64,000 nt of DNA from an uncultured Nitrososphaerales archaeon. GTDB lineage: Archaea > Thermoproteota > Nitrososphaeria > Nitrososphaerales > Nitrososphaeraceae. Shown one piece after another: positions 9,069-38,532 of this stretch; position 1 is the stretch's first letter, and every line of letters starts with the position of its first letter. A program made the translations under genes and the position numbers. The DNA is taken from NCBI GenBank assembly GCA_963713605.1, contig CAVQMO010000012.1, positions 128,001-192,000 on the forward strand. Direction: 5' to 3'. The notes beneath the pieces were generated by a model. That model saw only the letters and a program-made list of their open reading frames with translations. It was not told the origin of the DNA and did no database searches.

Positions 9069-9098
9069 AATTTCGGTCGCATAATTGCTGATAGATTC

Positions 9099-10983: not shown

Positions 10984-11148
10984 GTGCAGGTGTCCATTGA
11001 ATTTGGTGTCTTAAAATTAACAAAACCTTTTAAAAATTTAGTAGGTAAAATTTTGAAAATAAAAAAGTGAAAGGTCGTTGCTCCACCTCCAACGTGACCG
11101 CCACTGCCACGGTAACAAGAATCGTCTTCAACCATTAACCAGTTTGAT

Positions 11149-11818
11149 TTAAATGAGAAGACCTATAATCCCTTGTAAGTCGCCGACATTTCCTATTGAT
11201 CCCCAATTTACTATGCCTCCACAACCAGTAGGTTCTTCCAATGCCTTAAGTGCACCAATAATCAATGGAAGTGGTAGACTGGCCAGAAATGATCCACCAC
11301 CAGCCAAAAGATGCCATTGCGTATACATTCAACTGCGCGCTCTCCTTCTGTAGTGAGAGTATTGTCCGGATTAACTAGAACATCGCATGATGATACCAAG
11401 GCTGCTTGTAAGTCGTTTCATGTCTTAATCCAGTCGATACCTTCTCCTTGCGACGTAGGTGATTGAGTAGAGGACTCTGCTGGGAATGGTTTGTCAATTA
11501 AACCTCCTCCTCTATCAATGGAACCTCCGGTCTGACTGGATTGCGAAGGTTGAGTCGGCGTCGATCCTCCTGTCTTTGAAGAGGGTGGTTGGGTATCAGG
11601 TGATTTTACTGGGTCACAAGTAAAATCATCATAGTACCCCCGAACAAACTCATCTGTATAACCTTCGAGTTGCCCTACCGTTTTGGATTCAGCCAATCCA
11701 GAAGAAGCCTCGTCACAACCCCTATCACGACCTGTGTCATATTGAGAACTCATGCATAAACTTGAAGAGTACCGATTAACTGTTGTGAAATCAGTGTGCT
11801 ACTAACTGCCATAGTCAT
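11149..11818 (-). pseudogene. Secreted thaumarchaeal hypothetical protein, disrupted
   Basis: YDTGRDRGCDEA...GIDWIKT*NDLQAALVSSCDVLVNPDNTLTTEGERAVECIRNG / frameshift / LAGGGSFL...PTGCGGIVNWG; internal TGA plus frameshifts. Confidence 0.7.
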
Positions 11819-12052
11819 GAACTATTCCTTTATTTGAAAAGACTGGTGACTTAATTATTGAACTAAGAAGTTTTTTGGAAAGTACTATTGAGGTATTACG
11901 TCGTTATTAATGCCACCCTCAGGTGGCCTTTTGCACCAATGGAAGTATCAATACCTAAAGATGTTGCTACTGCAATAAAATCACAGAAAAGTGAAAAATT
12001 AAGGATGTATTGACTGAACTAAAATATACATAGATAGGTTTCAAGAGGAGAT

Positions 12053-12271
12053 ATGAGCGATAATTCTGAAGAACTGGTAACAATTGACGGCCTACAATTC
12101 AAAAAGTATCAGATAGATTGTATGCAAATACTTACTAAGGCGCAAAAATATGGTGACGTTAAAAAATTCATAGAAGGTAGTGTTTTACTAAATATTAGAG
12201 CACAGCTAGAATCATCGGAGGCGAACTACGCAACGCCAATTCTAGATAGATTAAAAGAAGATGGATTTTAA
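12053..12271 (+). CDS. Small hypothetical protein
   Basis: ATG with GAGGAG RBS, 72 aa, natural composition. Confidence 0.65.
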   Translation: MSDNSEELVTIDGLQFKKYQIDCMQILTKAQKYGDVKKFIEGSVLLNIRAQLESSEANYATPILDRLKEDGF

Positions 12272-12275
12272 TTTT

Positions 12276-12600
12276 TTAGTTAGTCCTATCTTTCCCTCTG
12301 CCTTCTTGCAGCATTGTAATAAACTTCTCTGGTTCTGATAGTAAGGCGTGCCATTCGTCTTTCATATCTTTAATATCTTTCTTTAACATCACAATTTCTT
12401 GATCCTTCTCTTTCATTGCAACCTCTATATTTTTGGACCTGGCGTCCAGTGATGAGTAACCTACGTACTGTAAGGCTGGGCATGCATTTGGTTGTGTTAA
12501 TTTCGCGCCGCTCATTCTCAGTGTGCGTCCAGTAAACGGAATGGTTGTATCCGAGGTACCAGTTTGCGAACTCACTATTGGTCTGTTCATTTGCCATAAA
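12276..12600 (-). pseudogene. C-terminal remnant of a Nitrososphaera-type tyrosine recombinase/integrase
   Basis: QTNSEFANWYLGYNHSVYWTHTENERREINTTKCMP / frameshift / YVGYSSLDARSKNIEVAMKEKDQEI resembles the LGH..Y catalytic box and coiled tail of these integrases (recognised from memory). Confidence 0.65.
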
Positions 12601-12886
12601 AATTAGTTTCTTGTAAATTCCTATAGGCTCACACGGGAATGGCTTACTTCGTCTTTGCGTCACCCATAATCGGGTTTCCTGAATACATTTGGTGAAGTAG
12701 TGGAACGTGAAACCGCATGGTCCTCTCTAAGGTAAGACTACGTTGATTTGGTTCTAACACAAGCAAAATGATCCTATCTTTCTATAATGATCTGAATTAG
12801 GTTTTTTTACACATTAATCCACGATAGTATTTTGGAAATTCAAGTAAAAATAAAGGGGGGATGCTTCAGTATTTCAGCGAATCCTA

Positions 12887-13144
12887 TTACTTCACAGTAA
12901 GACCGATCTCTGGAAATGTTTGATCTGCTGCTAATGATACTGCATTCTCGTCGCCTTGAATCTGTGAAGCAATGTTCTGACATCCGACGTTGAGAGGTAG
13001 TTCACCATTTCCACAGGCGTTTGCCTGAGATAATGCTTGGTTCTTGTGGTATTTGGTTGCAAAAGCGCTGTCAGTTGTTATTGCTGTTGCACCTACTAAC
13101 GCTGCTGCAAGTACCGCCACAATTGCGATATATTTGAGGTTCAT
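12887..13144 (-). CDS. Small secreted two-Cys protein (SQANxCGN family), copy 1
   Basis: Signal peptide ending SAFA; SQANACGNGELPLNVGCQNIASQIQGDEN; paralogs at 40578 and 41172. Confidence 0.85.
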   Translation of the reverse strand: MNLKYIAIVAVLAAALVGATAITTDSAFATKYHKNQALSQANACGNGELPLNVGCQNIASQIQGDENAVSLAADQTFPEIGLTVK

Positions 13145-13179
13145 GTTTCTGGGAAGTAGTGAACATGCTATACTTATGT

Positions 13180-13232
13180 CAATTAAGCAAGTTCAGGCGA
13201 TTACTTAAATCTGATATATATTCTATTAGAAC
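13180..13232 (-). promoter_or_regulatory. Conserved upstream element of the SQANxCGN family (also 40888-40941 and 41489-41541)
   Basis: Sense consensus GTT(C)TAATAGAA(A/T)A(A/T)ATATC(A/T)GAT(T/A)TA...TG(A/G)A(C/T)TTGC(C/T)TAAT in all three copies. Confidence 0.7.
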
Positions 13233-13469
13233 GAAATCAAGACAACCGTTCTCATATAGTAATATCAGATATTGCCCGTCACCAGATGTTAACAAGAACA
13301 TAGAGACGCCACTTCCAACTTTGGTGTTGTCTGATGATGGAGTCCTATAACACCTTTATTGGCGAGCACTTGCAATTAATCAAAATAACAACTATAATCC
13401 TTACGGACCTCTCTATTCCACTTCTACAACGGGTTATCCTTATGCCCCTCAGTCAGCGTCAAGCGGAGG

Positions 13470-13615
13470 TTGAGCCATTCATATCCAGATATAAGTATAC
13501 GGGACCTCCACCCTCCTTAGCCTGTGAACAGGTCTCTTCTAGAAACTTCAGAGTTCTTCCACCTGACCAGCATAGATTCGACGATGATAGGGACCGCATT
13601 GGGTGTGAAGCATGA
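13470..13615 (+). pseudogene. Excalibur-like calcium-binding domain remnant
   Basis: SYPDISI / PPPSLACEQVSSRNFRVLPPDQHRFDDDRDRIGCE, a degenerate DGDxDGIGCE motif. Confidence 0.7.
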
Positions 13616-13826
13616 ATGAAGGGTGGCATATCTCAACTAGAACAAGAATATTTCTAGCCACTCTAATAATAGGCGACAAGGTGCCAGGTTTCGTAACTAG
13701 GTCAAGGATTGCGTTGCCGAGTGCGTCTTTGCGTATTTTCTTAAATCTGCCATGAAAATCCTGAATCCCAAGAACTAGATTTATACTTTGAATGACCGCC
13801 ACGCTATTAAAAAGATAACATAAGAA

Positions 13827-14117
13827 ATGCAACAGCGCGACAAGTACGATATAGTCAAAGACATCCTCGAGATAGTCTATGATACTGAGCCTCTTTATCG
13901 TAATCAGATGAATCAGACGAGGATAGGTTATAAAGCAAACTTGACGCATCCGCAAACCGTCAAGTATCTAAGAAAGTTAGTAGACTTAGGACTGCTCGTT
14001 TCGACGGATATCAAACCCTTTTCTTACTACGAAATCACTAAGAAGGGACGGCGATGTCTGCAGTTATTCGGCGAGCTAGAGGACGATTTAAGACCAGTCT
14101 TTTCCGCGGAGGGCTAA
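13827..14117 (+). CDS. Archaeal winged helix-turn-helix regulator (HTH_45/ArnR1-like)
   Basis: RDKYDIVKDIL...TRIGYKANL...YLRKLVDLGLL...YEITKKGRRCL. Confidence 0.85.
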   Translation: MQQRDKYDIVKDILEIVYDTEPLYRNQMNQTRIGYKANLTHPQTVKYLRKLVDLGLLVSTDIKPFSYYEITKKGRRCLQLFGELEDDLRPVFSAEG

Positions 14118-14694
14118 AAAAAGATTATTGTTAGGAAATTATGCCAATAATGCATATTATTAGTCATTAGTTTCAGTTTAAACCTATGGAGAAAACCATT
14201 CACGTTAACAGTTGTGATATTTTTACGATTGTTATAATTTTGACGTCCTTAGGACCTAAAGTCAAAGATCAACCTCGAGTTAGAGGGTAACGCTAACCAT
14301 TCCAACTCCTTTAATAGAGATTCATATTTATTCCAAAATGGCAAAAGAATAAAGTTGTCTATTTGTTTGCATGAGATATCCGATTCAATCATGATCAGTT
14401 ATGAAATAGATTCAATTTAAGGATTTATGTCTTTTTAACAATTAGATCGGATAGTAATTTGCGTCTTGTGTAATACACCAAGATATCTTTTGTCTGGCCA
14501 TTCAATAAGTTCACATTTACTACACATTGTGAAACTTCACAAAATGCCTTTACTTATATATGCTTGTGTTAGCTTCATCATTTCTAAATGTTCTTTGTTA
14601 AACATTACAGGAACAATCAAAGGACTGCGACATTCTGTATATTTGAATTTATTAAGTAATACTAGTAATAGCGCAAGAACTACGTGATAAAAAT

Positions 14695-14751
14695 ACCGAT
14701 ATTAGTAAAGGTCACACGTTGTTAGTTGATGGAGGCCTAGTCAGCCGATGA
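14695..14751 (+). pseudogene. Extreme C-terminal stub of an SDR oxidoreductase
   Basis: DISKGHTLLVDGGLVSR* resembles the SDR terminal motif GxxLxVDGG; very short. Confidence 0.4.
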
Positions 14752-14831
14752 GAATCTGAACTAAATGTATTTTTGCCGGTATGTATTTAGTGGCTAACAC
14801 TTTTGAGTTTTCAATGGACTCAATACAAAAA

Positions 14832-16508
14832 TTATCCCAGAAAATCGTCATCAAGCAGAATTCTATTTCTGGAATAATCAACGTCCGCAGAAATTACAAC
14901 AGGAATATCTTTTGACCTTCTGGCTTTTTTTAAACAATCTGAAAATTCATTTACTGATTTTACAGCATAACCTATTGCTCCAAAACTGCTTGCCAACTTT
15001 ACAAAGTCAGGATTGTTAAACTCTGTAAAGGCCTTCTTTCCAAATTCCTCAATTTGCTTTAAAGAAATCACCCCGAATTCCCTATCACACCAGATCACAA
15101 TTATTATAGGCAATCTGAGGCGAACAGCTGTTTCAAGCTCTTGAACATTCATTAGAAAACCTCCGTCACCACACATAGCAACAACTTTTCTCTTAGGAAA
15201 AGCAAGCTGTGCTGCAATCGCACCAGGAAGTGCAAAACCCATCGACGCAAATCCATTTGATATAATACAAGTATTTGGATGGTATGTACTGTAGATTTTC
15301 GCTATCCATAATTTGTGAGCACCTACGTCTGAAATAAGTATATCCCGATCATCTAGGGCTCTTCTAACATCTGCAATCAATCTCTCAGGCTTGATAGGAT
15401 ACCCAAGATCATCGGCATGCCTCTGAACTCTCTCATCTATCTCTTTTCTAATTCTCTTAAAAGTCTCTGGAACTTCATTACGCACAAAGTAATTTACAGT
15501 GGAATTTTTAAATCTTCTTTCTCTCCTCAAACCAGTTAACATAGCATTTATTGCTAATCCTATATCTGCTGCAATCTCAATATCAGGCGGATAATACGTA
15601 TCTACCTCTGCCGGTGTAAAGTCTATGTGGATAATCTTTTTACTAAGATCGTCATTCCAGAATCTTGGACTGTATTCTACCAGGTCATAACCTATTGCAA
15701 TGACCAAGTCCGCTTCCTTCATCGCTATCAATGCATGATCTGCATCTTTGATACCAATAGTCCGAAGATGTCTTTCCCATCTATCCGAGATCACGCCCTT
15801 CGCCATAAATGTATTCACAGAGGATATTCCAGTTTTTTCAACAAACTTCCTAACATGAAAGCTTGCTTTTCCTCTAATGCAACCATTTCCCACTAAGACA
15901 AGCGGTTTTTCAGCTTGAAGAATTAGTTTTACTGCCTTCACTATTAGACGTCTGTTTGGATGCGAACGTAGTAGGACATCTTCCTCTTGTTTTTCAATGG
16001 GCTTTATTCTAGATTGCTGCTTTGCTACATCCTGTGGTAATTCGATGTGTGTCGCTCCCGCCTTTTCCTCCTTTGCTATTTTAAATGCTCGCCTAACAAT
16101 CTCTGGAATATTATCTCCATTACGAATTGATTGATTCCATTTTGTTATCGGTTTGAACATAGTTATCACATCCATATTCTGATGTGACTCTTTGTGTAAC
16201 ATATTAGAATCAATTTGTCCAGTGATCGCCAATACTCTCGATCTATCCATGTTAGCACTTGCTATTCCAGTTGTCAGATTAGTAGCTCCTGGACCTAGCG
16301 TGGCTAGACAGACGCCAACTCGACCTGTCAATCTGCCGTAAACGTCTGCCATGAAGGCAGCCGACTGTTCATGTCTTGTCAGAATGAATTTCGCAGTTGA
16401 ATTTAGTAAAGATATCATAATATCGGCAGTTTCTTCACCAGGTAAACCAAAGACGTAATTGACCCCCTCGGCTTCAAGGCACTTAATTAACAAATCGGAT
16501 GTTTTCAT
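14832..16508 (-). CDS. ilvB: Acetolactate synthase large subunit-like TPP enzyme (stand-alone)
   Basis: FGLPGEE, TRHEQSAAFMA, TLGPGATN, GDGGFLMNVQELETA TPP motif. Confidence 0.9.
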   Translation of the reverse strand: MKTSDLLIKCLEAEGVNYVFGLPGEETADIMISLLNSTAKFILTRHEQSAAFMADVYGRLTGRVGVCLATLGPGATNLTTGIASANMDRSRVLAITGQIDSNMLHKESHQNMDVITMFKPITKWNQSIRNGDNIPEIVRRAFKIAKEEKAGATHIELPQDVAKQQSRIKPIEKQEEDVLLRSHPNRRLIVKAVKLILQAEKPLVLVGNGCIRGKASFHVRKFVEKTGISSVNTFMAKGVISDRWERHLRTIGIKDADHALIAMKEADLVIAIGYDLVEYSPRFWNDDLSKKIIHIDFTPAEVDTYYPPDIEIAADIGLAINAMLTGLRRERRFKNSTVNYFVRNEVPETFKRIRKEIDERVQRHADDLGYPIKPERLIADVRRALDDRDILISDVGAHKLWIAKIYSTYHPNTCIISNGFASMGFALPGAIAAQLAFPKRKVVAMCGDGGFLMNVQELETAVRLRLPIIIVIWCDREFGVISLKQIEEFGKKAFTEFNNPDFVKLASSFGAIGYAVKSVNEFSDCLKKARRSKDIPVVISADVDYSRNRILLDDDFLG

Positions 16509-16794
16509 AACCTATTTATCAATTATGTTAGTAGCCTGTATACCTTAAGTTAGTTGTGTGTTATACGGGTGGTTGCAATTACATGATACTGTTGAGTAAC
16601 TATACACTAAGTACGACGCTTCAAAATGGGACTTTAACGGTCAGAAGGGAAAGGGAAAATCCCAGACAGACTATGCAGGTGGTAGGAATCACATGACTAG
16701 ATTCATTTACGTGCTGAGTAGTCTAGAGACAAGAAGACAGTATTCTCGACCTAGACCAGAAGGGTTAGGAGTCTGATTTAGTAGATTCTGACAA

Positions 16795-16826
16795 TAAAAA
16801 AATGGGCTTAGTCTCTAGCCCCCCTA
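16795..16826 (-). terminator. Hairpin plus T-tract after the Cys-rich pseudogene
   Basis: Minus strand reads GGGCTAGAGACTAAGCCC-ATTTTTTT. Confidence 0.5.
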
Positions 16827-16859
16827 TTCTGAATCCTCATTATAATTATCTAATTGTCA

Positions 16860-17510
16860 TTACTGCTAATTGTCTCCACCGTTACCATCGCCATCCCATC
16901 ATCACCAACAGAATTGTCGCCTATTTCTTCACTGCTGGGATCCTCGTTATCCGGGTTCTCCGGCGAGTCTTCGTCCCCCGTACTCCCTTGCTGATCTTGT
17001 TCTGGGTCTTGTGCCTAGACCGGTTCAGGTGGTGAAGGATCTCCGGGTCTGCAGCAACACAATATGCAGACTGCTTCCATGGGCCTGGCGGTGTCACAGG
17101 TGTAGTTGCATCCTGTAATTATAGTTGCCGAGTTGGGGTAGTGGAGATGGGGGGATTGTTGCATTCTGCTTTGTTTGGTTCTAGTGTTCCATCTGGACAT
17201 GTGACGGGTACGCCTACAACGACACACTCCCCAGTTTGTGTGAATATCACTACTTATTGGGAGGACATCCTGTATTCAATGGCGTTTCACATTTTCTGAC
17301 TACGTCGTCGACCGTCCCGTCTGGACATGTCACAGTTAGACCGCCAGACCTAGGGGTATCACCTCTCTGCTAATCTCTATAGAGGGAGGAACATTGTCAA
17401 TCTCCCTTCCGGGGTCAGGAGATGCAAAGACAGTGTATGGCATTCCTGATGTCAGAAGTACCATAGATGGTATTAGCCAAACCAATAATCTCATCAAACC
17501 GAGCTGCTTA
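16860..17510 (-). pseudogene. Secreted Cys-rich repeat protein with acidic tail, disrupted
   Basis: Signal-like MRLLVWLIPSMVLL...VFA; two VTCPDGT repeats; D/E/G-rich tail QDPEQDQQGSTGDEDSPENPDNED; several stops and frameshifts. Confidence 0.55.
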
Positions 17511-19130
17511 ACCTCCAACCCCTTCGCATTAAGAGTCGCGTAAACTGAGTCCAGTATAATTCCTACTCTATTGCGTTCCTTCCTCCCTGCCATGAAACTA
17601 TGGAATACGTGTCAACATTTAAAGTTTGGATGACAGACAGGGCAGTTGTAAGGTATGACATCAAACTTTGAATAATTTCCTCAGGGTTGGTTGTTGATAC
17701 GCTCTAGCTCCCGGTATGGAAACTATTTAATAGTATGCCAAGTATTTACTACTGGCAGTGGGGAGCATTTAAATCGCTCTTAAAGAATCTCACTGCCGAC
17801 TGTATGGTAGACGACCAATGCGTCTGACATGCCAAGTTATTCACTTGGTCGCTATGTAATCCATATTCATTAGATAAAACAGTATCAGCATACAATGACC
17901 CGCCTTTGATTCATGTTTTCTTCCTACCGCTGAAAACATGAGAGTCATTGAGCTACGGGGAATGAACCTCCAGCTAAAGACTTCTCACTAAGCAGTGGAA
18001 CTAATACAAGCCAAGTTGATACACGTCAGAAGAGAGCACCACCAGCAATTGAGGACTTCTCACTACGACAGATTATTCCAGCTGAACTGCCTTTTCTAGT
18101 CTATATATACGTCTAGTAAGAATGGTGGCATAAAGCCCACTCTCTTTTATTTTCTAAACTAAGCCTGTCAGGATCACTAATGTCGCTTTCCTTGAGGAAA
18201 CGGTTGCAAAGATTAATTTTTTTCGAGAGCTACTTACATTTTGTTTGGGTCTCCATGAGACTCTTCAAGTTCGAGATTCAGTTTTTCATCTTTCATTTTC
18301 AACTCATCCATCAATTTGCGCATGTATCGACTATTCTAGGTCGGAGACGTATGTATTAATCTTCACAATGATTATTGTATGATTGATAGGTTAAATAATG
18401 GCAATGATAGTAACTTTTTTTACTTAATTAGTACCAATCTAATAAACCAGTGAGACTCGAAACATGTCTTATCCTAATAAAGGTGTGAGTACTAATTGCG
18501 CATAAAGAGAAATAGTAATTAAGTAAAGTGTTTCTTGTTCAGATTTTACATTCAAAAAATAAAGAACATAATACTTTTCCTGTGTTCTCAAAGCCCATCA
18601 TTCATTTTTTCCTTCTCATTTTCTAACTTATTTGAAGGAAAATAATGGTGTAGATCCATCCATTCTTCTTCGGCCATCCAATAGCTACAAAACCATTTCT
18701 TTAATTTCTGATTATATTCTCCATGTTCGGGCAAAATTAACTACAAACTTGTCACAGATTAAAGGTGCTATAATACTTTTGGTTGATAATTCAATTCCAA
18801 GATTCTGATTCTGATTCTGATGGCAACGGAATCTTTTTTAAAATAGGAAATTCTGAAGGGAATTTTAGCCTTGCGTAGGGCACAGTACCTAAATGTTAGG
18901 GAATTCTGACTAGATATGGAATGGTGATAGATTAAGTATCATGCTGTATCACAACATCCACTGGGCTAATTTTAGGTACCTATCTATCATGACATCACCA
19001 GTGCAACTTCAAGCACATTAAATATTTTTCAGCCAGAAAGTAAATCTTATGGTTTAACATAAGCCGAAAATCCTAAAAACCTCTGGAAATGGGCGATGGA
19101 AATACCTGCCGATGAGAATCCTGTTAATGA

Positions 19131-26343: not shown

Positions 26344-27135
26344 ATGAATTTGAACAAAATAGTGGGTTTTGAATATATAACAAAGAAATTTTTCTTTTTA
26401 TTAGAACCCATAATAAAAAAAACTACAATCACTGTTACATTGGGATTTAATCATAAATTTTATTTACCTCTATTCTTGTTCCTTATTTTATGTGTATTTC
26501 ATACTCAAGTCACTACTGTATATGGATCTTCTAAAGAATCATCTACCCTCAGTCGTGCGAAAGATATGTCGATAGACCTGTGTTGTACTTGGGGTAAGCA
26601 AATTTCTGATGGAATATTAAAATTTAAGCTTGTCAACATGCAGGAGAAGCAGAGAAATGAAGTCAGAGAAGCGTTTGATAGCTGGAATAAACAGCTAACC
26701 ACACTAAGACTTATTGAGAGTTATTCGCATGATCAAAAGGCGGAGATTATTGTTACATTTGGAGATATCGATAATGGAAATATCAATCAATTAGGTAAAA
26801 ATGCAGAGGCTGGACAGACTGCAGGACAATCTGTTAATAATCTTAATCAAAGTGGATATATCACGAACGCAAAAATAATACTTTCAGATAAAATATTTGA
26901 TAAGGAATCAGATTCTAGCACTTTGTATGCTGTCGTCTTACATGAGATTGGGCATGTATTAGGACTTGGTCATGCAAACTTTGATGATTTAATGAATCCA
27001 CTGGTCAGGATTCAGGACGAAATTTCTCTTTGTGATGTCAACGGAGTCTTCAAGGCCAATGAAGTGGTCCTAAAGAAAAATGCATCACTATCCCTTCAAG
27101 CTAGTTTTGGTGAGAAAAATATTATGAACTGTTAA
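26344..27135 (+). CDS. Matrixin-like (M10) zinc metalloprotease, secreted
   Basis: HEIGHVLGLGH zinc motif followed by Met-turn LMNP; start probably later than annotated. Confidence 0.9.
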   Translation: MNLNKIVGFEYITKKFFFLLEPIIKKTTITVTLGFNHKFYLPLFLFLILCVFHTQVTTVYGSSKESSTLSRAKDMSIDLCCTWGKQISDGILKFKLVNMQEKQRNEVREAFDSWNKQLTTLRLIESYSHDQKAEIIVTFGDIDNGNINQLGKNAEAGQTAGQSVNNLNQSGYITNAKIILSDKIFDKESDSSTLYAVVLHEIGHVLGLGHANFDDLMNPLVRIQDEISLCDVNGVFKANEVVLKKNASLSLQASFGEKNIMNC

Positions 27136-27364: not shown

Positions 27365-27414
27365 TTACGTTACGTTACGTTGCGTTACGCTGCGTTACGC
27401 TGCGTTACGTTGCG
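27365..27414. repeat. Pentanucleotide microsatellite (YTRCG)x10
   Basis: TTACG TTACG TTACG TTGCG TTACG CTGCG TTACG CTGCG TTACG TTGCG. Confidence 0.95.
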
Positions 27415-28038
27415 GCATATATTATGATGCTAAATATATATCTCAATCTAAATATACAGAAAACTGTACGCTGTCATCGTAGAAAAGAATTTTGATGACA
27501 AGAAACTTGAATTCTGATTGTTTTAATAATAAGGGTCCTACCAAAATTTGTCATCGATACCCACTCTGGCTTTTTAAATTGGTTATAAATTCCCGTGATA
27601 GATGTGACCGTCATGTGCTTGAATATTACAAAATAATGATCAAGTTATCGCTGCTCCTAAAATCTCTCATGCTGAATCGGTAGAAGATATCAGGGCGTGG
27701 GAGGAATACCTCACCAGATAAGGCTCTTCAGTTGCTAGAAAATTCGCCGAATTAACCACAAGTCTTTATTATATTCATGTTAGCTGATACAATTAGTTAG
27801 GACTAGAATCTATACTTCATTTTTACCGTAAATCCGTAAATCTGTAAATTCATTCTTCATCAAGCATTACCAAACTATGACTTTTGAACTTATTTGACGG
27901 TACAAGTTAGCCTTATCAATTCTCTGTATCTTATTCCAGGATTCTTAATTATAAAATCATAGATCTCGCCCCTGATATCATCCGAACTGGCCACAAGATC
28001 CTGTTTATGCGATAAAAATTGGTCTTTCGATGAGACAT

Positions 28039-28479
28039 TCATTGTTTTGTATTCACCTTTAAAATACCTATACCAAATAATGTCAGCATCGCAAACAGGA
28101 TTACGTGGGGCAATTCTATATTAATCATTGGAATCAGTATTTCTCGAATACCTTGTGTGGCATAGAAAAGGAACAAAGTCTCTACTACGATAAGAGACAA
28201 GAATCCTAGCGACATGAACAACAACCTTGAACCGCCATTTCTGATGTACGATGATATTGAAACAATGAACAAGAAAAGCGAAAATATGAGACTCGCAATA
28301 TGAAGTATGATGTGGTAAATGTGTTGTGGGTGACTTGTGTGTGGAATTATTACGGGAACGGCTAGGACTGAAACTATGATAATCGAAATAACGATGAAGA
28401 GCTTTGGTTTATCAGAGACTAGGTTATCAATAATTCTAAGCGGCCTTCCAACATGAGAGTACACATGTTTTGTTTCCAT
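28039..28479 (-). CDS. Four-TM membrane protein with His-rich loop
   Basis: Four hydrophobic segments; PHTSHPQHIYHIILH; directly downstream of 28630-29241. Confidence 0.8.
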   Translation of the reverse strand: METKHVYSHVGRPLRIIDNLVSDKPKLFIVISIIIVSVLAVPVIIPHTSHPQHIYHIILHIASLIFSLFLFIVSISSYIRNGGSRLLFMSLGFLSLIVVETLFLFYATQGIREILIPMINIELPHVILFAMLTLFGIGILKVNTKQ

Positions 28480-28629
28480 TCTTACTCTTATATATTTAAG
28501 TCTAGATTCATTTTATCTAATTCTTGTATATCATAACACAAAACAACACGTACAAACAAAAGTAATTTGGAGTAAGAAGCCTTCTAGGGATACTCTAAAG
28601 GATCTTCCCATTCATTATATGTGATCGTC

Positions 28630-29241
28630 CTACGACTCTGTACTATTTGTTGCCTCCGTGCCATTTCCATGTTCTCCTTCTTCTGCGCCAGGCGCAATTT
28701 CATTAACGCCTATAACGGCAGTGCTTCCAGGAGGAAACTCTAAATTACCTTCGCCAGGGTTTGCAATGGCCACATCTGTAATTACTTCTTCATGCGAGGC
28801 TATATCAACATGGTAAAGACACATCTCTCCTGGCGTTGATAATTCTGGTAGATTTTCTAATTCGGCTGCAGTGAAATTAGGTGCTTGTCCAAGAAGAACT
28901 TGAATGCTAGCAGTCGAATTGTCTTCACATGGTACATTCACAGCGACGTGACCATTTGTTATCATATACGGAGTACTGTCATACAGATGAATGAATTTGC
29001 CTGCGGGTATAGTTTTCCCTTCAAGAAGCTCGGCAACAGAGTCGCGTACTACATTAGCAGACTTGTTATACGCATGTTCAGTTTCAGTCATATTTGTCAT
29101 CCCAGCCATTCCGGTCATGTTTTCGCCAGCAGAATGACTAGCTAGTACCTGTGTGGTTGTATTGTTTATTCCATATGTGCTAAATCCCATTAATCCAGCA
29201 ATTACGAATGCAATATACAGAAACTTAGTACTTGATCGCAT
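28630..29241 (-). CDS. Secreted His/Met-rich thaumarchaeal protein (candidate copper binder)
   Basis: Signal peptide ending VLA; SHSAGENMTGMAGMTNM; FIHLYDSTPY...GHVA..PC...MCLYHVD. Confidence 0.85.
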   Translation of the reverse strand: MRSSTKFLYIAFVIAGLMGFSTYGINNTTTQVLASHSAGENMTGMAGMTNMTETEHAYNKSANVVRDSVAELLEGKTIPAGKFIHLYDSTPYMITNGHVAVNVPCEDNSTASIQVLLGQAPNFTAAELENLPELSTPGEMCLYHVDIASHEEVITDVAIANPGEGNLEFPPGSTAVIGVNEIAPGAEEGEHGNGTEATNSTES

Positions 29242-29261
29242 AAAACATAGATCAATAACTT

Positions 29262-29290
29262 TTTATTAAGTATTATGGTACAGCAGACGA
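29262..29290 (-). promoter_or_regulatory. Promoter with shared motif TCGtctGcTGTACCATA-N4-TATA
   Basis: Minus strand TCGTCTGCTGTACCATA-ATAC-TTAATAAA; ATG lies 28 nt from the TATA start. Confidence 0.65.
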
Positions 29291-29507
29291 ACAAACTCCT
29301 GAAACTTTAGATGGATTTTCCGTACACTTATTGATGTTGTAATGGTTCTTCCAATGTGAGCTTTCTGCTATTTTGTAAGTGTAGGTTCATAAAAGCACCG
29401 TACGGATAATAAGATAAATATGGCCAAATAGGATAAATACGAAAACATTAACATACTATCTCTAGTAATGATTGAGGTGTAGTTCAGATTCGAGCATTGC
29501 ATTGTTA

Positions 29508-29528
29508 TGAACCATAAATGTTATTTAT
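29508..29528 (+). promoter_or_regulatory. Promoter with variant shared motif TGAACCATA-N4-TATA
   Basis: TGAACCATA-AATG-TTATTTAT; ATG lies 29 nt from the TATA start. Confidence 0.5.
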
Positions 29529-29549
29529 CAGAAATCCGAATTTTATGTC

Positions 29550-30530
29550 ATGCGATTAATGAAAATTGACAAGTCAATTGTACTATTTTTAATGGCTACA
29601 GTGGTCATGTTGACCGGATCTAATACTAATACTTTATTTGGCCACAATTTTTCTCCCGATGAGAGTGCATCATTTCTTGCCTTAGTTAATACAATAAAGG
29701 CAGAAACTCAGCTAGTACAACAGAATATAGCAAGCAATAACATGTCTTTGGCTAGCGATCATGCGAACAATGCATTAGCACTGATGACGGATGATGTAAA
29801 CAAAGAAATTGCAGAAAGAAACCAAAGATTGTCTGATGATCTTAATACTGATTTAGCATCTTTAAAGACATCTACAGAATCAACCTCTGGCATTAACACG
29901 GCTAGTGACACAGATATTTTAGTTGATGATATCAATGGTATTCTGGATGAAATCGTTACCTCAAGAGTAGACCCAGATCAGCTGAATAATTCTACTATAC
30001 AGGTACTAGCTGCAGCTGAGCTACTAGATGAAGTGCTTAGAAATTACGGAGATGCTTTCGCAGTTGGATATGATATGACTAATATGTCGATGATGATGAT
30101 GGATGATGGCAATAATAGTAATAATAATACTAGTAGTAATAGTGAAAGCGATACTAGTATGCATTCGATGTCTACTATGAATATGGGTGGCGGTAGTGTT
30201 GGTAATAATATGTCGATGGATGATATGTCGAATTCTGATGGTAAGTTAGTCAATATAACAGATTATCAGACTGCACAAGCATTAGCTATGAAAGTACAAG
30301 AATTATTTGACAATCAGATAATGAATTCTTCATTATCTGAAGGCTCTGAAACTGTAGATCAATCGATTAATAATGTATCAACCGCATTAAAGGAACTAGT
30401 TACAGATATTAATAAAAAATCATCTCCAATGGACATAATGACGATCGTACATACAAAAATCCATCCTAATCTCATGACTGCGTTTGGATTACAGCTGGAT
30501 AGTGGTAATGTAGATAAAGGATCTAGATAA
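29550..30530 (+). CDS. Secreted helical protein with predicted mature His1 and Met-rich linker
   Basis: Signal ...NTLFG|HNFSPDES; 13 Met in the central linker; C-terminal IVHTKIHPNL. Confidence 0.85.
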   Translation: MRLMKIDKSIVLFLMATVVMLTGSNTNTLFGHNFSPDESASFLALVNTIKAETQLVQQNIASNNMSLASDHANNALALMTDDVNKEIAERNQRLSDDLNTDLASLKTSTESTSGINTASDTDILVDDINGILDEIVTSRVDPDQLNNSTIQVLAAAELLDEVLRNYGDAFAVGYDMTNMSMMMMDDGNNSNNNTSSNSESDTSMHSMSTMNMGGGSVGNNMSMDDMSNSDGKLVNITDYQTAQALAMKVQELFDNQIMNSSLSEGSETVDQSINNVSTALKELVTDINKKSSPMDIMTIVHTKIHPNLMTAFGLQLDSGNVDKGSR

Positions 30531-30709
30531 TATCAAAAATTTTTTTGCTCTTAGGATAAGATTTCTCTAGGAGAACTTTTGTGATATTAAAAGAGTAACT
30601 ATGTATGATCTGAGTTTCAATTTTTTCTTCTGATGCTTAAGAAGTATGAATGTAACATAGATGTGAATATGTTAATAGACTTTAAGCATTAGGCTGGGCT
30701 AATCTTTAT

Positions 30710-30738
30710 TCGAGTGATGTACCATATATCTTAAATAG
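30710..30738 (+). promoter_or_regulatory. Promoter with shared motif TCGagtGaTGTACCATA-N4-TATA
   Basis: TCGAGTGATGTACCATA-TATC-TTAAATAG; GTG lies 28 nt from the TATA start. Confidence 0.65.
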
Positions 30739-30758
30739 TTATCAAACAAACTACATCT

Positions 30759-31409
30759 GTGAAAAATAGAAATCTACTAGTTGCGTTGATATTAAGCACT
30801 AATATGATGATATTGATTCTTGCGTCGATAGGAGCACATTCTGTATCTGGACATGAAAGAAGACTGTATACTATCGGCGATCAAAACTATCTCTTTGTAG
30901 TAGGTTCAATGAATGAGCCAGCGTTTGTGGACGACAAATCAGGGGTTGAAGTCTTCACATGGCTGCCTGATCCGACCGATCCTATGAATTCCCAAGCAAA
31001 TGGTACAAAGCCTATTGAAGGATTGACTCTCAAGGCAGATGTATCTGCAGGAGGAAAGAACATGACTCTAGATCTAGAACCAGCGTTCAGAGATCCAGGA
31101 CATTACGAGGCAGTATTCTATCCAACAGTACCAACTACATACAACTATACAGTATATGGAGATATTAATGGTACTGCATTCCGTGATACGTTCACATGCA
31201 GACCTGCTGGTGAATCAGAACCCGCCCAAGATAATTCAACGATAACTGTGTCAGATGGTGTTACTAGAATAGGTCAATCTGGAGGATTTGGTTGTTTCGA
31301 ATCAAGAGCTGATGTGTCATTCCCAGAACAGTATGTATCAAATTACGAGCTTCAACAGATGTTAAACAGTCAAGGAGGAACATCTAATTCGACAAAGTCG
31401 ATACCTTAA
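30759..31409 (+). CDS. Secreted beta-sandwich protein with predicted mature His1 (HERR...VG..NEPA)
   Basis: Signal ...HSVSG|HERRLYTIGDQNYLFVVGSMNEPAF; PGHYEAVFYPTVPTTYNYTVYGDING. Confidence 0.85.
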   Translation: MKNRNLLVALILSTNMMILILASIGAHSVSGHERRLYTIGDQNYLFVVGSMNEPAFVDDKSGVEVFTWLPDPTDPMNSQANGTKPIEGLTLKADVSAGGKNMTLDLEPAFRDPGHYEAVFYPTVPTTYNYTVYGDINGTAFRDTFTCRPAGESEPAQDNSTITVSDGVTRIGQSGGFGCFESRADVSFPEQYVSNYELQQMLNSQGGTSNSTKSIP

Positions 31410-31506
31410 ATTGTTCTGAATTTGTGTCAATTCATATGGGGTATTTCCACTCCTTTTCTTTGTCGTTCCTATCAAATCAAATTCTTTATGCAAGAAGTAG
31501 ATAAGA

Positions 31507-33015
31507 ATGCGACTCTTCTTGCCTAACTTTCTCCTCAGACACGTATCAAATGCTTTGCCCATCCTATTAGTCATCATCATTTCAACAATATCTGCCCAAC
31601 CTCTCAATCAACAAGTGTTTTCCCAGAGAGATAGCGATCCTTCAATGATTATGTCTCATTCAGAAAATTCTGAAGAATCTATCACTTCATATAATGATGC
31701 ATTAATCAAAGCACCGTTACTAGTCGCTCAGTGCACAATAGTAGGAATAGTCTTTAGCCAGCTCGTGCTATCAAGGATATTCTATAATCGTATATTGATG
31801 AATTTCAGCAGGCATAGCGTAACAACCCAAACAAATCTTGGTACAGATAAGAGATTATCTTTGATTATAATCCTGTCTGCTGTAGCATTATGTGTTTCCT
31901 GCACTGGTTTTTTGATGCTGCAAGTATCCAGTCTGTCATCAGAATTGGGCCTGGGATTTTCTGATACTTTTTCAATTGTTATGAACACGTCTCTTTATGC
32001 AGTTTGGCTCCTGAGAATCATCACATCTATTTTGATACTTATTCTTTCAGTAATGTTTTATATGTTAAGTGGGAGAAATTTGATCGCAAGAAGAATCGAT
32101 GGAAATAGTATTAGAAGAATTAAGAACAAAATCCTGTGTGTTATCCTTATTTGCGGTTCAATAAATATTATCTCTAATGGGATAGTAAGTCATAACGCTG
32201 CGGCTGAGTTCCTTCCATGGCTGGCGATCTCTGCTGATTGGTTTCATGTTATGGCTGTTTCAATTTGGTTGGGGGGGCTATTCTATATATCATTAATACT
32301 TCTTCGTACAATACGTACTAACAGTAGTGATCTAACATACGGGAGAGAATTAGATACAACAGACGAGCAAATAATAGTAAGAAATTCCTTCGCACTAGCA
32401 CTAATGCTTCCCTATTTCTCAATGATTGCAGTCGTATGTTTGGGTGTGATTGGTATAAGTGGATTGTATATGGCATGGATTCAACTTCAATCAACTGAAT
32501 CTTTATTTGATTCCTTATATGGAAACATTCTCATTCTTAAATTATGTGTGATTGTACCTATGATTGCGTTAGGCGGTTATCATCAGATTAAATTACATCT
32601 TGTCATGGTACAGATCGCCCAACGAGGAAATAAATCACGGGAACAATTGAGAGTTTCGTCAAATGTTAATAGAGTAGCTCGATACGATCCATTTACACGA
32701 TTTTCCAAAACAATCAAAGTTGAGTCTTTGATTGGAATTTCAGTCCTTACCATATCTTCATTTCTAACAATTACATCTCCTCCGTCTATGGCTCATTCTG
32801 GTATTCAAATGCAAATGGAAGGTTCACAATCAGCTAATAATAGCCTTGATGGCAGTAGTAATGAAGATGATAGTGGGATTACACCTAGGTTTACTGATGC
32901 ATTCACCATTGCGGCATCGATTTTGGCTTCCATTGTTTTGATCATGAGTCTCCTTTACTATCGAAAGAGTAGGCGAGAATTGAAAATTACACTAGAACTA
33001 CTGAAGCCGCGATAG
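31507..33015 (+). CDS. copD: CopD family copper uptake membrane protein
   Basis: Multi-TM; SHNAA, DWFHVMAVSIWLGGL, YGNILILKL...LGGYHQ, KVESLIG motifs. Confidence 0.9.
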   Translation: MRLFLPNFLLRHVSNALPILLVIIISTISAQPLNQQVFSQRDSDPSMIMSHSENSEESITSYNDALIKAPLLVAQCTIVGIVFSQLVLSRIFYNRILMNFSRHSVTTQTNLGTDKRLSLIIILSAVALCVSCTGFLMLQVSSLSSELGLGFSDTFSIVMNTSLYAVWLLRIITSILILILSVMFYMLSGRNLIARRIDGNSIRRIKNKILCVILICGSINIISNGIVSHNAAAEFLPWLAISADWFHVMAVSIWLGGLFYISLILLRTIRTNSSDLTYGRELDTTDEQIIVRNSFALALMLPYFSMIAVVCLGVIGISGLYMAWIQLQSTESLFDSLYGNILILKLCVIVPMIALGGYHQIKLHLVMVQIAQRGNKSREQLRVSSNVNRVARYDPFTRFSKTIKVESLIGISVLTISSFLTITSPPSMAHSGIQMQMEGSQSANNSLDGSSNEDDSGITPRFTDAFTIAASILASIVLIMSLLYYRKSRRELKITLELLKPR

Positions 33016-33324
33016 ACATCGAGGCCGCATTGATGCGTATACTATTGGAGGATTACGAGATCTGCTATAACATCTTTTACATTATTTTTGACCTCTGATT
33101 ATTGAGACAGGTAAATGGTTTTAGATTGTTTCAGCTTGATGAGAACTAATATTCATCAAAACCTTCCTATGCATCATCACAACATTTTTGGCTTTAATAA
33201 GCGCTTAAACATATATTGCAAAGAAATTAGTATACTAACAGTGTAATCTAGAAAATAGGAATCAGCAGTGAGAATTCAAGGGGCAAATAAAAGATCGATT
33301 ATGAATAGAAGCAGTCTTATCTTG

Positions 33325-33352
33325 TCGAGAGATGTACTATAAGGTTTATGAA
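33325..33352 (+). promoter_or_regulatory. Promoter with shared motif TCGagaGaTGTACTATA plus TATA
   Basis: TCGAGAGATGTACTATA-AGG-TTTATGAA upstream of copC. Confidence 0.6.
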
Positions 33353-33401
33353 TGTGGAATGATAACAAATATGTTGAAAGAAAAAGAGGCATTTTGAACG
33401 A

Positions 33402-34214
33402 ATGGCGAAATTTCGATATTATAATAATAATAAGAGGTCAATTTTATCAGTAACCATATTAATTTCTCTTGTTATGATGATGTTAACAATTGGCAATCTG
33501 ATTCCTCAAAATGTTTATTCACACGCAAATCCAATTTCATATACACCTCGGTCTAACTCAATTGTTGGAGAAAATGGAATTCTTCCTGAAAAGGCAGTAA
33601 TTGTATTCTCCGAAAGACCAGAACCAAAAGCAAGCTATATTCATGTAACCAACTCAGATAATGAAAGAGTAGATAAAAATGACTACGAAGTTAACTCTAA
33701 CAATCCTCGAGAATCTTCAATATCTATTGATACTACGAAATTGAAACCAGGCATCTATACAGTGTCTTGGCTCGCTCTATCTAGGGATGATGGTCACATC
33801 ACAAAGGGTTCCTATGTGTTTACTGTACCGAAAGCATCTAACAGTCCAGAAACGGGTGGGAGAGTTATGATGAATAATGATTTTGTAAATAGCACTATTA
33901 TAAACAATGTTAATGTAACATTTAGGATATCTCCATTCTATTCAGGAATAAATAACAATTTTACTGTGTCATTATCTGACTCTGATGGAAAAGCCCCTAC
34001 CAATGTCAAAACTGTTTTCTTGATATTTAGTAACAAACAAGCTGAACTAGGACCAATTTCTGCAGAACTGACAAAGGCTGGTGAAGGTCTGTACAACGGA
34101 TCTGGTGGATATCTTAGTCAACCAGGAGAATGGGAAGTTAAGATGACTGTTCAAAGGAATGAAGCATACGATCTAAACCACAGCTTTACTTTTGACATAA
34201 AAAATCCTCCTTGA
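33402..34214 (+). CDS. copC: CopC copper-binding protein fused to a C-terminal YtkA/FixH-like domain
   Basis: Signal ...VYS|HANPISYTP; FSE; GIYTVSWLALSRDDGHITKGSYVFTV; YLSQPGEWEVKMTVQR. Confidence 0.92.
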   Translation: MAKFRYYNNNKRSILSVTILISLVMMMLTIGNLIPQNVYSHANPISYTPRSNSIVGENGILPEKAVIVFSERPEPKASYIHVTNSDNERVDKNDYEVNSNNPRESSISIDTTKLKPGIYTVSWLALSRDDGHITKGSYVFTVPKASNSPETGGRVMMNNDFVNSTIINNVNVTFRISPFYSGINNNFTVSLSDSDGKAPTNVKTVFLIFSNKQAELGPISAELTKAGEGLYNGSGGYLSQPGEWEVKMTVQRNEAYDLNHSFTFDIKNPP

Positions 34215-36538: not shown

Positions 36539-37472
36539 GTGGAAAGTATCAATTTTGTCTGCCTTGGTCAAACAGAATTTGTAAAGGAATTAGGAAAAAA
36601 AGGACAATCAAGTGATGTAACGACATATGACAAGAAAAAAGATGACAGAATTATGACATACATAATACCGTCAGGCTATCCCGACAAAATCCAACCATTA
36701 ATTACTGCAGCAAATTTGGCAGAATATTCTATAGTAAACATTAACAAACTAGATAGATATCTAGGAGAACAAATAGTAGCCTTAGATTCTGCTGCAACTA
36801 GATAAAGGGTTTCTTCTTCATTCTTACGAAGTTGATATTGAAATGCTTAAGAGTCTTCTAAAAAACACTGTTGCATCATCATTCAAAGTTGAACAGAACA
36901 TTGAAAGTCTTAAAGAAAGTATCGATTCCTTATCTTCAGTGAAAAGAGATGGGCCACCAATTATTCACATAGATAACATATTTAATGTCAAAGGAGTCGG
37001 TGTGGTTGTATTAGGTATACTTAAACAGGGTGCCATCAAAATACATGATGAACTGATACTATTTCCTCAAAAGAAAAAGGTTACAATCAAAAGTATACAG
37101 ATGCATGATAAAAATGTTGAAGAATCATATAGTCCAGCTAGGGTAGGTCTTGCTCTAACAGGTGTTTCTTTTGACGAGTTAACTAGAGGAGATATTCTAT
37201 CTAATATCAATCATTTTACTTCTACAGATCAGGAATTGATCATGAATTTCAATAAGGTACCATTTTATAAGAATGAGCTTTCAGAAAATCACTCCTATCT
37301 TTTGTCCATAGGTACACGAATCAGGCCTGCAAAGATAGAGAAATTAGAGAACAATAGGCTAAAGATAGTATCTGAGAAGCTGTTTTCATTTAAGGTCGGA
37401 GATACTGCAATTCTGTTAAATCCAGATAGTAAAGGTATACGAATAGTAGGTTCAGGAAGTATATGTGTATGA
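36539..37472 (+). CDS. Archaeal EF-Tu/SelB-like domain protein with a +1 frameshift at ~36789
   Basis: LGKKGQSSDVTTY...GYPDKIQPL...GEQIVALD / LLQLDKGFLLHSYEVD...IDNIFNVKGVGVVVLG...SIQMHD...RVGLAL. Confidence 0.8.
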
Positions 37473-37761
37473 TGAATCTGAGTGTATATCAATCTCCAAG
37501 AATCCAGGTGTTATGTTAAAAACCAAGTAGATTAGATAGCTCAGGGAGTAGTATGAATTTGAATATTTATGTTAAGAGTTCATTCTTGGAGCAGAACGAT
37601 TCAAAATAAGATTTTAATCTGTTAGCATATAGCGTACTAAGATTTTTCATCATGGAATTTAGTTGAGTCATTCCTCAGAATAAATAGAATCATTGAATTA
37701 AACAATAGAAATATGTTCCCCGTCTTGTATATGAGAATGTAAATTTCTCCTATTAACAGTT

Positions 37762-38240
37762 AAAAATCCTGATCTAGATGGTGTTCTTACAAATACAAAA
37801 TATAATGATAAAAGAAAGTATCCAGATGATAAACTGCATAAGCTTATCTCTCATTTCAATTCCCCACATCTATGCAATGAGGATATAGAAAGTACCGATA
37901 TTTTCGGCGATGCATTCAAATATCTCTTAGAACAATTTGCAGATGAAACAAAAAAGTCTGGAGGTAACTTCTTCACACCCAAAGGAGTTGTCAGACTTCT
38001 AGTCAATTTGGTCGAACCAAAAGAGAGTATGAGTATATGTGATCCAACCTGTGGTTCAGGTGGTATGCTTATCGAATCTGTGAAGTTTATTTCGAAGCAC
38101 GGAGGAAATCCAAGAAATCTGGTGTTGAAGGGCCAAGACGTCAACTACGGGACAATTGGTATGTGTAAGATGAATATGGTTCTACACGGTATTGAGGACT
38201 TCAGAATAGAGTATGGGGATGCAATAGTCAATCCCACCGA
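37762..38240 (+). pseudogene. hsdM: Internal fragment of a type I restriction-modification methyltransferase (HsdM)
   Basis: GDAFKYLLEQFA...GGNFFTPKGVVRLLV...DPTCGSGGML...CKMNMVLHG; N-terminus and NPPF motif absent. Confidence 0.9.
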
Positions 38241-38271
38241 ACTAGTAACGCAGGAATATGTTAGGCATATA

Positions 38272-38532
38272 TTATTTGAGGCCCAGATCTTCTAACGCCT
38301 CATACCCTTGTTTCTTTATTCTCCATAGCCTGAAGTCTGCATCGCTAGGTCTGGGTCGTACTTCCTCGGCGAGGTGCCGAGACTCTAATTCGTTTAAATA
38401 GATTTTAACCTCAGGTTGTGGAAGCCCGCTTTGTGATATTATATTACTTTCGAATATGTCTGTATCAGTGTCATTGTGCGCGGGTTCCGCAAGAATATCT
38501 AGGACATTTTTCAGTCCCCGACTCGTTGACAT
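38272..38532 (-). CDS. Small hypothetical protein, possible winged helix
   Basis: IISQSGLPQPEVKIYLNELES...WRIKKQGYEAL. Confidence 0.55.
   Translation of the reverse strand: MSTSRGLKNVLDILAEPAHNDTDTDIFESNIISQSGLPQPEVKIYLNELESRHLAEEVRPRPSDADFRLWRIKKQGYEALEDLGLK

Follow-up and report, generated by a model that had tools for sequence, protein, structure and literature searches.

A soil ammonia-oxidising archaeon's version of a known copper-starvation-induced gene cluster, with secreted proteins predicted to start with histidine and a candidate membrane sensor paired with a regulator

Introduction

Nitrification in ammonia-oxidising archaea runs on copper (Cu) enzymes. The closest described system is a 25-gene cluster around copC/D in Nitrososphaera viennensis, with a common motif and with 15 genes up under Cu limitation; that report leaves the regulation of the Cop genes open (Reyes 2020, PMC7785015). 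Here we describe a locus at positions 27890 to 34214 of a 64,000-nucleotide stretch (the window) from an uncultured Nitrososphaerales archaeon (assembly GCA_963713605.1, contig CAVQMO010000012.1, positions 128,001 to 192,000). The locus is a soil ammonia-oxidising archaeon's version of this already known copper-starvation-induced gene cluster.

Three further systems resemble parts of the locus. In Bacillus subtilis, YcnJ is a CopC-CopD-YtkA protein and the accessory protein YcnI, a monohistidine brace formed by its first residue (His1) and a Glu, exchanges Cu(II) with the CopC of YcnJ (PMC12362106). In Pyrococcus furiosus, the pf1089/tfb-rf1 operon holds a four-transmembrane (four-TM) gene upstream of a gene for an auto-activating helix-turn-helix (HTH) protein, and a palindromic box stands at a fixed distance before a weak B recognition element (BRE) and TATA element, before the operon itself and before transport genes (PMC5937170). 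Lastly, CrdA of Helicobacter pylori is described, in the accessible text, as binding via Met and having no His (PMC9182242).

The window's version of the copper-starvation cluster

The features of the locus are as follows, where P0001 to P0004 denote the four proteins outside CopC and CopD.

27890..28042, minus strand: truncated gene (50 codons) for a tandem winged-helix regulator, overlapping at its start the stop of the P0001 gene
28039..28479, minus strand: P0001, 146 amino acids (aa), four predicted TM helices, candidate Cu sensor; maps to NVIE_014290
28630..29241, minus strand: P0002, 203-aa secreted protein with a predicted jelly-roll core; H85, H98, H144, D88, D156 and a Cys pair conserved
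29275..29293, minus strand: operator-like box, TTCG-N5-TGTAC core, score 19.1; upstream of P0002, 5 nucleotides (nt) before a TATA-like hexamer
29550..30530, plus strand: P0003, 326-aa secreted protein without Cys, predicted His1; homolog of NVIE_014250
30707..30725, plus strand: operator-like box, score 22.4; upstream of P0004-copD, 5 nt before a TATA-like hexamer
30759..31409, plus strand: P0004, 216-aa secreted protein, GTG start, predicted His1; maps to NVIE_1457
31507..33015, plus strand: CopD-family membrane protein, 502 aa (Pfam PF05425)
33322..33340, plus strand: operator-like box of lower score (12.2), ahead of copC
33402..34214, plus strand: CopC fused to a YtkA-like domain, 270 aa; H41, D130-G-H132, no Met

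The original prediction for this DNA, which had proposed a copper-acquisition locus of six open reading frames (ORFs), was accurate as to their coordinates, strands and divergent layout; the truncated regulator gene at 27890-28042 and the three operator-like boxes were absent from it.

The correspondence with N. viennensis was drawn through a named Nitrososphaera metagenome-assembled genome (MAG), whose locus (L076) has the same gene order as N. viennensis from EF-1a to purP, similar protein lengths (303/301, 247/251 and 170/172 aa), and upstream sequences that, compared by eye, match the published ones for four genes. P0004 is 49% identical to the L076 protein that leads to NVIE_1457, P0001 is 45% identical to the one that leads to NVIE_014290, the regulator maps to NVIE_014280, and P0003 maps loosely (28% to the L076 protein) to NVIE_014250. 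Under Cu limitation the log2 fold changes were 2.80 for NVIE_1457, 2.68 for NVIE_014300, 2.72 for NVIE_014290, 2.47 for NVIE_014280 and 2.64 for NVIE_014250, so that NVIE_1457, NVIE_014250 and NVIE_014290 rose ~6-7-fold, and in the Cu-limited proteome NVIE_014250 ranked 3rd and NVIE_1457 6th by intensity (PMC7785015). Because of this mapping, the cluster and its Cu response count as already known, its functions not. The copper-acquisition role and the Cu-dependent expression foreseen in the original prediction are thus supported by the induction of the mapped genes and by the linkage to CopC/CopD described below, and the locus very probably serves copper starvation.

Overall, the locus shares with the N. 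viennensis cluster (NVIE_014250-014340 and NVIE_1457; PMC7785015, PMC12448741) the P0004, P0003, P0001, regulator and CopC/CopD/YtkA-like families, as well as the promoter box and the induction by Cu limitation (PMC7785015). In contrast to N. viennensis, separate genes encode CopD and CopC-YtkA here, the layout is divergent, the cluster includes P0002, and the copy of the regulator gene is cut short. The available portions of both papers leave the genes as of unknown function and do not remark on His1 (PMC7785015, PMC12448741), and in the open-access literature, where the NVIE locus tags turned up in three papers only, we found no text on His1 or on a sensor-regulator pair. What is new here is the conservation of His1 together with the CrdA/P19-like predicted fold of P0004, and the tight pairing of P0001 with the regulator.

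The nearest named relatives are Nitrososphaerales/Nitrososphaeraceae MAGs with 85-90% identity for P0004, one of which (L032) has an identical six-gene layout. Among 151 Nitrososphaeraceae genomes, including the archaeon's own, P0004 occurred in 78 (E 0.001) and, at E 1e-6, P0003 in 130, P0002 in 124, P0001 in 127 and CopD in 137. These tallies include one genome flagged as unpublished (G077; in one tally also G099), which supplies 1/18 rows of the P0004 alignment (A1), and no claim hangs on them alone.

Both Cop identities were borne out. The CopD domain (PF05425) scored 56 bits against a gathering score of 32.1 (E 5.9e-15) in a protein with 10 hydrophobic segments, and the CopC domain (PF04234) 53.2 bits against 23.3 (E 6.3e-14); the NCBIfam equivalog cut-offs, 195 for CopD and 95 for CopC, were not attained. 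With H41, D130-G-H132 and no Met in the domain, CopC is of the single Cu(II)-site type (class C0-1) and has no Met-rich Cu(I) site. The predicted fusion of CopC to YtkA stood for its CopC part; the YtkA-like part at the C-terminus (PF13115, E 1.8e-4) reached 22.6 bits, under the cut-off of 25.9, and the equivalent region of the L076 fusion protein scored 25.9 bits.

Secreted proteins with a predicted first histidine

P0001 to P0004 gave no Pfam or NCBIfam match above cut-off. In P0004, P0003 and CopC, a His (H32 of HERR, H32 of HNFS and H41 of HANP, respectively) is preceded by a single hydrophobic stretch and then a small residue. For P0004, H32 proved invariant across 88/88 ORFs (72 archaeal-binned and 16 bacterial; loci L031-L109), always with A or G at -1 (88/88); E53 is kept in 87/88 and a Cys pair is conserved as well, and H115 is not conserved in the bacterial members. 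H32 of P0003 is likewise invariant, in 21/21 homologs from the same loci (L031-L109), alongside H71 (18 of 21), E86 (19), E89 (19), H301 (16) and H305 (13). ORFs shorter than 150 aa (P0004) and 220 aa (P0003) were left out of these counts. The His1 of the original prediction is therefore invariant in both families, while its processing rests on predicted cleavage: we infer that signal peptidase may expose His1 on P0003, P0004 and CopC. In a rough scan of the archaeon's own genome, 7/195 predicted secreted proteins had His at +1, and 5/7 of these sit at copC/copD loci, so that His1 at cop loci is more than chance; the scan was noisy, in that it mis-cleaved two window proteins and overlooked the one with a GTG start.

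The same did not hold for the His2 and Met repeats that had been proposed as a functional site of P0002. His2 (H36) is present in 2/21 homologs (82/120 among close relatives), the P0002 paralogs of the own genome start with Gln, and the Met runs of P0002 and P0003 sit in variable low-complexity stretches. With His2 at 2/21 and the Met run in variable sequence, His2/Met was rejected as a family metal site. The conserved core of P0002 consists of H85 (20 of 21), D88 (20), H98 (20), H144 (18), D156 (19) and two Cys. By these homolog counts, two of the three secreted unknowns have His1 as a family trait, whereas the His2/Met of P0002 is none.

The AlphaFold2 model of P0004 (predicted local distance difference test, pLDDT, 82.8) is an Ig-like sandwich. 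Its top fold match is H. pylori CrdA (PDB 9LL2; Z 10.3, root-mean-square deviation (rmsd) 2.4 A over 101 aligned residues), followed by DUF4426 (Z 9.3), CBM56 (Z 9.2), FtrA-P19 (Z 9.0, rmsd 3.3, 110 aligned), HftA (Z 8.9) and Tp34 (Z 8.3), with CopC at Z 6.7; Foldseek with the same model returned nothing at E 0.001. The predicted fold is thus like that of the periplasmic Cu-binding proteins CrdA and P19/FetP/Tp34 (Z 10.3 and 8.3-9.0), at 10-12% identity, and a common fold gives no proof of function. CrdA differs in having a Met-rich loop and, in the accessible text, no His (PMC9182242), whereas P0004 has His1, E53 and the Cys pair; with the MMXEMPGMXXMXEM motif absent and His1 invariant, P0004 was rejected as a CrdA.

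Judged by sequence, the H32/E53 spacing of P0004 resembles the N-terminal His of YcnI with a Glu ~23 residues on (H27/E50). However, P0004 gave no Pfam match to the YcnI family DUF1775 at E 0.1 (nor did two homologs at E 0.05), YcnI is missing from the 50 listed P0004 fold matches, and no invariant Trp corresponding to the YcnI brace Trp was found in alignment A1. A PDB sequence search with alignments A1, A5 and A4 gave no E under 0.02. P0004 was rejected as a YcnI family member and is read as a non-homologous analogue, a YcnI-like accessory, because of its conserved His1 and its CrdA/P19-like predicted fold.

The predicted linkage to copC/copD was recovered: CopC or CopD was found within the fetched DNA at 65/79 P0004 loci, several of the misses being short contigs. 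In most archaeal loci P0004 lies immediately upstream of copD or copC-copD, and in most of the 16 bacterial loci, chiefly from Acidobacteriota, P0004 comes first and a single small gene separates it from CopC-CopD-YtkA. Distant relatives of P0004 were found in another family of the order (11/26 genomes), with His1 kept wherever the start was seen. The window copy has no C-terminal anchor; the L076, L091 and L100 copies have one. Contigs from RNA libraries cover P0002 and P0004, which is no demonstration of transcription.

In the bacterial loci (L096-L109) the middle gene encodes an unannotated 190-aa membrane-anchored protein, CopC-CopD-YtkA has a long C-terminal extension, and the archaeal box is absent. 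The L076 region (6194-17562) encodes seven proteins with a His right after an AxA/AxG-type motif (starts at 6940 minus, 6973, 9992, 10756, 14195, 14758 and 15727), three of them beyond the families studied here.

Natural P0003-P0002 fusions occur in five genomes of one genus. A model of such a fusion, as distinct from the window proteins, had a pLDDT of 85.5: its P0003 part formed two tandem four-helix bundles with generic matches only (best Z 12.6), and its P0002 part a jelly-roll, again with generic matches only (TM-score to target at most 0.55). The P0002 beta domain was fold-searched inside the fusion only, so its fold verdict is no finer than jelly-roll. Csp copper storage proteins are Cys-lined four-helix bundles; P0003, with predicted four-helix bundles and no Cys, was rejected as one. 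In the ESM Atlas, P0003 led only to unnamed Nitrososphaerota clusters, and longer fused forms (666-2000 aa) were not found among 7996 candidates, itself weak evidence. Among loci L113-L121, five genomes fuse the P0002 core to P0003 and four more join it to unrelated N-terminal domains, of which one is repeat-rich.

The P0001-regulator pair

Seven residues of P0001 (H47, H50, H56, H60, E100, E122 and H125) are invariant (18/18), and among 150 distant representatives, counted over ungapped rows, H60 is kept in 130/135, H56 in 111/133, H125 in 95/119 and E100 in 99/133. By the positive-inside rule applied to the four predicted helices, the conserved His and Glu lie on the outer face. The regulator gene directly follows P0001 in 24/29 named loci, often overlapping its stop codon, and 2/5 loci without it stop at a contig edge. 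Outside the family, where 25 genomes matched and 19 of them were given as loci, the regulator directly follows P0001 in 19/19; 14/19 have the box just upstream, and within the 3.4 kb fetched none has P0003 and three have a distant P0004 relative. In a Nanoarchaeia MAG (L091:9069-12171), a three-helix P0001 homolog (match probability 96.8), the regulator, P0004 and CopC-CopD stand in one run. P0001 therefore travels with the regulator and not with CopD, and we do not follow the original prediction in making this membrane protein part of the relay.

In L076 and L091 the regulator passes both Pfam HTH_5 and HTH_HVO_0163_N, and hence has two HTH domains. Against NCBIfam HTH_metalloreg (ArsR/SmtB) its first member scored 38.8 bits, below the cut-off of 55. 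A Cys (C113 in alignment A8) is nearly invariant. The window copy is cut after 45 homologous codons, its likeness to intact copies ending at 27908; the gene is intact in 4/4 close relatives fetched and in a paralogous locus of the own genome (C15). One listed contig crosses the 27908 junction, and because it has 23 letters on its short side against the 31 needed, formal confirmation of the truncation is limited to this assembly. Contigs from two runs of two studies skip a 725-base stretch (27594-28320) that takes in what is left of the regulator gene along with the 3' half of the P0001 gene, a weak sign that the orphaned P0001 copy is decaying.

Sub-threshold profile matches of P0001 were to 7TMR-DISM_7TM (13/18), DUF7521 (7/18), MASE3 and MHYT, and its ESM Atlas scores for sensor-like domains were 0.76-0.81, with all leads below 0.9. 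Because of the tight pairing with the regulator and the position of the box just before TATA, a role as membrane Cu sensor is likelier for P0001 than one in the relay; that it senses Cu for the regulator we regard as an even chance.

A paralogous tandem winged-helix regulator was found in the own genome at C5:333800-335760 and C10:915400-917950. The box in front of it and of nearby genes for secreted proteins is a variant, TTAGA-N4-TGTAC, and the C5 copy has as neighbour a small membrane protein lacking the P0001 His set. The variant box also occurs at C2:92787 and C13:14209.

The promoter box

A core pattern, TC[AG]-N5-TG[TA]AC, was derived from the published motif and chosen with the sites of the paper and of the window in view. 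It was present upstream of 54/69 archaeal P0004 genes, where mononucleotide shuffles led to an expectation of 2.0, and upstream of P0001 in 18/29, P0002 in 13/17, P0003 in 13/23, CopC in 18/41 and CopD in 4/36 cases; bacterial P0004 genes had none (0/16). A matrix was built from 76 sites after close relatives had been set aside; of its 14 top-ranking sites in the own genome, 10 belong either to this locus or to one of the two paralog loci. Shuffled DNA yielded 5-8 sites scoring at least 16 per 2 Mb compared with 21 in the 4.1 Mb genome, for which reason only the top of the genome-wide list is informative. TATA-like hexamers peak 5-8 nt downstream of the box (140 strong sites), and a position just before TATA would be the place of an activator site. 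It is quite likely that the regulator binds this box.

The arrangement is similar to that of pf1089/tfb-rf1: P0001, with its four predicted TM helices, directly precedes an HTH regulator in a single operon, and the box is semi-palindromic, stands at a fixed distance upstream of BRE/TATA elements read from the sequence, and occurs before the P0001-regulator operon itself. The P. furiosus system has another box sequence and other targets, and its signal is given as unknown in the accessible text (PMC5937170); the two are likened by layout alone.

Mechanism and alternative explanations

We read the locus as a copCD-centred extracellular Cu(II) scavenging regulon that would be switched by a membrane sensor and a DNA-binding activator, with a probability of roughly 0.6. 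Under this reading, signal peptidase would expose His1 on P0003, P0004 and CopC, and P0004 would hold Cu(II) via His1 and E53, like the YcnI monohistidine brace, and pass it to CopC, which would then load CopD; such a relay into CopD, for which ycnKJI is the analogy, is on balance favoured. P0003, presumably made in very large amounts, could be a Cu sponge or buffer, and P0002 another member of the regulon that binds metal through a His3 module. Cu-loaded P0001, through its outer His/Glu face, would keep the winged-helix partner inactive; with P0001 empty, the partner would bind the box upstream of a weak BRE/TATA, recruit transcription factor B (TFB) and thereby activate the regulon plus its own P0001-regulator operon. 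Since the partner gene in the window is broken, the C15 locus would supply the intact regulator in trans. The likeness to B. subtilis ycnKJI extends to CopC, CopD and YtkA, an accessory extracellular His1/Glu protein, a linked regulator and use under Cu limitation (PMC12362106), but the window locus adds two more secreted families, and whereas YcnK is a repressor, the regulator here has tandem winged helices, a membrane partner and a box placed like that of an activator.

A broader proposal, which we put forward tentatively and at less than even odds, is that P0001 and its partner form a kinase-free transmembrane system across ammonia-oxidising archaea and some other archaea, which would read extracellular Cu and activate the His1-family regulon via the published box. 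If true, it would be the first PF1089/TFB-RF1-type membrane protein-activator module with an assigned signal, and two new His1 Cu(II)-binding families would be among the top-ten proteins of starved cells. The analysis also suggests a likely function for two unannotated proteins that rank among the most abundant in Cu-starved N. viennensis; one of them is found beside copCD in soil bacteria too. With a specific regulator, sensor and residues named, the regulation question becomes testable in vitro without archaeal genetics.

Several observations weigh against the scavenging regulon. Related genomes are non-independent samples. Distant relatives of P0004 have His1 but no copC/D within the 3.4 kb fetched, and the P0004 fold also matches the non-metal Ig domains DUF4426 (Z 9.3) and CBM56 (Z 9.2). 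Every match of P0001 to sensor families (DUF7521/DUF5985/7TMR-DISM/MASE3) is below cut-off, and Dreer 2025 (PMC12448741) labels NVIE_014290 a putative cation channel. As to the box, the window has none scoring at least 8 before P0003 or P0001, the literal Reyes consensus with 3 mismatches has two window matches and none in the locus, and, taken over the whole window, the simple core pattern shows no enrichment (5 hits versus 3.29 expected). P0002 mapped to no N. viennensis gene and was not found in the L076 genome with this query, and the orthology of P0003 to NVIE_014250 is loose because of the 28% identity noted above and the several paralogs per genome. The Cu-limited proteome has no Cu-replete control (PMC7785015), and the same genes are also up in biofilms (PMC12448741).

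Of the alternatives, two are about equally unlikely and better placed than the rest. First, as in the original prediction, all four unknowns, including P0001, could be carriers in a relay to CopD, with P0001 acting as a channel or Cu acceptor and the regulator sensing cytoplasmic Cu. The five invariant His and two Glu could line a pore, the P0001 counterpart is induced alongside copC/D, the nearly invariant Cys of the regulator would suit it, and so would the cation channel annotation (PMC12448741). Yet P0001 accompanies the regulator rather than CopD across families, the positive-inside rule places every one of its conserved residues on the outside, the domains it weakly matches are sensor domains, and the paralogous regulator also has a small membrane neighbour, one without these His.

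Second, the secreted proteins could serve extracellular cuproenzymes (ammonia monooxygenase, NirK, multicopper oxidases, heme-copper oxidase), either as chaperones or as a Cu store outside the membrane, instead of cytoplasmic import by CopD, an improbable reading for which there are precedents: YtkA (CtaK) loads B. subtilis cytochrome c oxidase (cited in PMC12362106), and CopC has also been proposed as an assembly chaperone (Reyes 2020, PMC7785015). The abundance of the P0003 and P0004 counterparts suits a sponge, and P0003 and P0002 are multi-copy and not all near copC/D. However, in the majority of archaeal loci P0004 immediately precedes copD or copC-copD, and in the majority of bacterial loci, from hosts that do not oxidise ammonia, a single gene separates it from CopC-CopD.

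Appreciably less probable is that the regulon answers another or broader signal, be it another divalent metal or envelope/biofilm stress, and that the His sites bind Ni, Zn or Co too or instead. His1 and His3 sites are not exclusive to Cu, and the fold relatives P19/FetP act in iron uptake. Induction came from a chelator (PMC7785015), and the genes rise in biofilms too (PMC12448741). Against this stand the restoration of nitrite production by added Cu in that chelator-induced limitation (PMC7785015) and the tight CopC/CopD linkage.

A copper resistance or sequestration module like CrdA or PcoC was rejected as barely plausible, since, although the top fold match is the resistance determinant CrdA and CopC/CopD families are annotated as resistance proteins, the counterparts rise under Cu limitation and not excess, the window CopC has no Met, and CrdA binds via Met without His in the accessible text (PMC9182242).

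Paralogous loci and neighbouring sequence

The proposed regulon has two paralogous copies in the own genome. One, at C15:79470-88180, comprises P0004, copD, copC, a second P0004, P0001, an intact regulator and P0002, and the other, at C3:27035-28982, P0002-P0001-regulator; both have strong boxes, and several of their genes contain frameshifts that may be assembly errors. A near-identical segment carrying P0002 paralogs is found on three own-genome contigs (C2:84000-100497, C13:5000-22000 and C12:383000-389318) and is either assembly redundancy or a strain mix; one gene in it is presumably RadA-like, judging from its motifs.

Within the window, the locus is adjoined at 26344-27135 by a gene for an M10-type zinc metallopeptidase (PF00413, E 3.6e-13), which neighbours the locus in a relative (L122) as well. 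Further along, at 36539-38295, lie what we take, from their motifs, to be a translation-factor-like gene split in two ORFs and a short type I DNA methyltransferase-like fragment. Between the peptidase gene and the regulator remnant, at 27365-27415, is a short tandem array of 5-base units, the length of which differs in one public contig.

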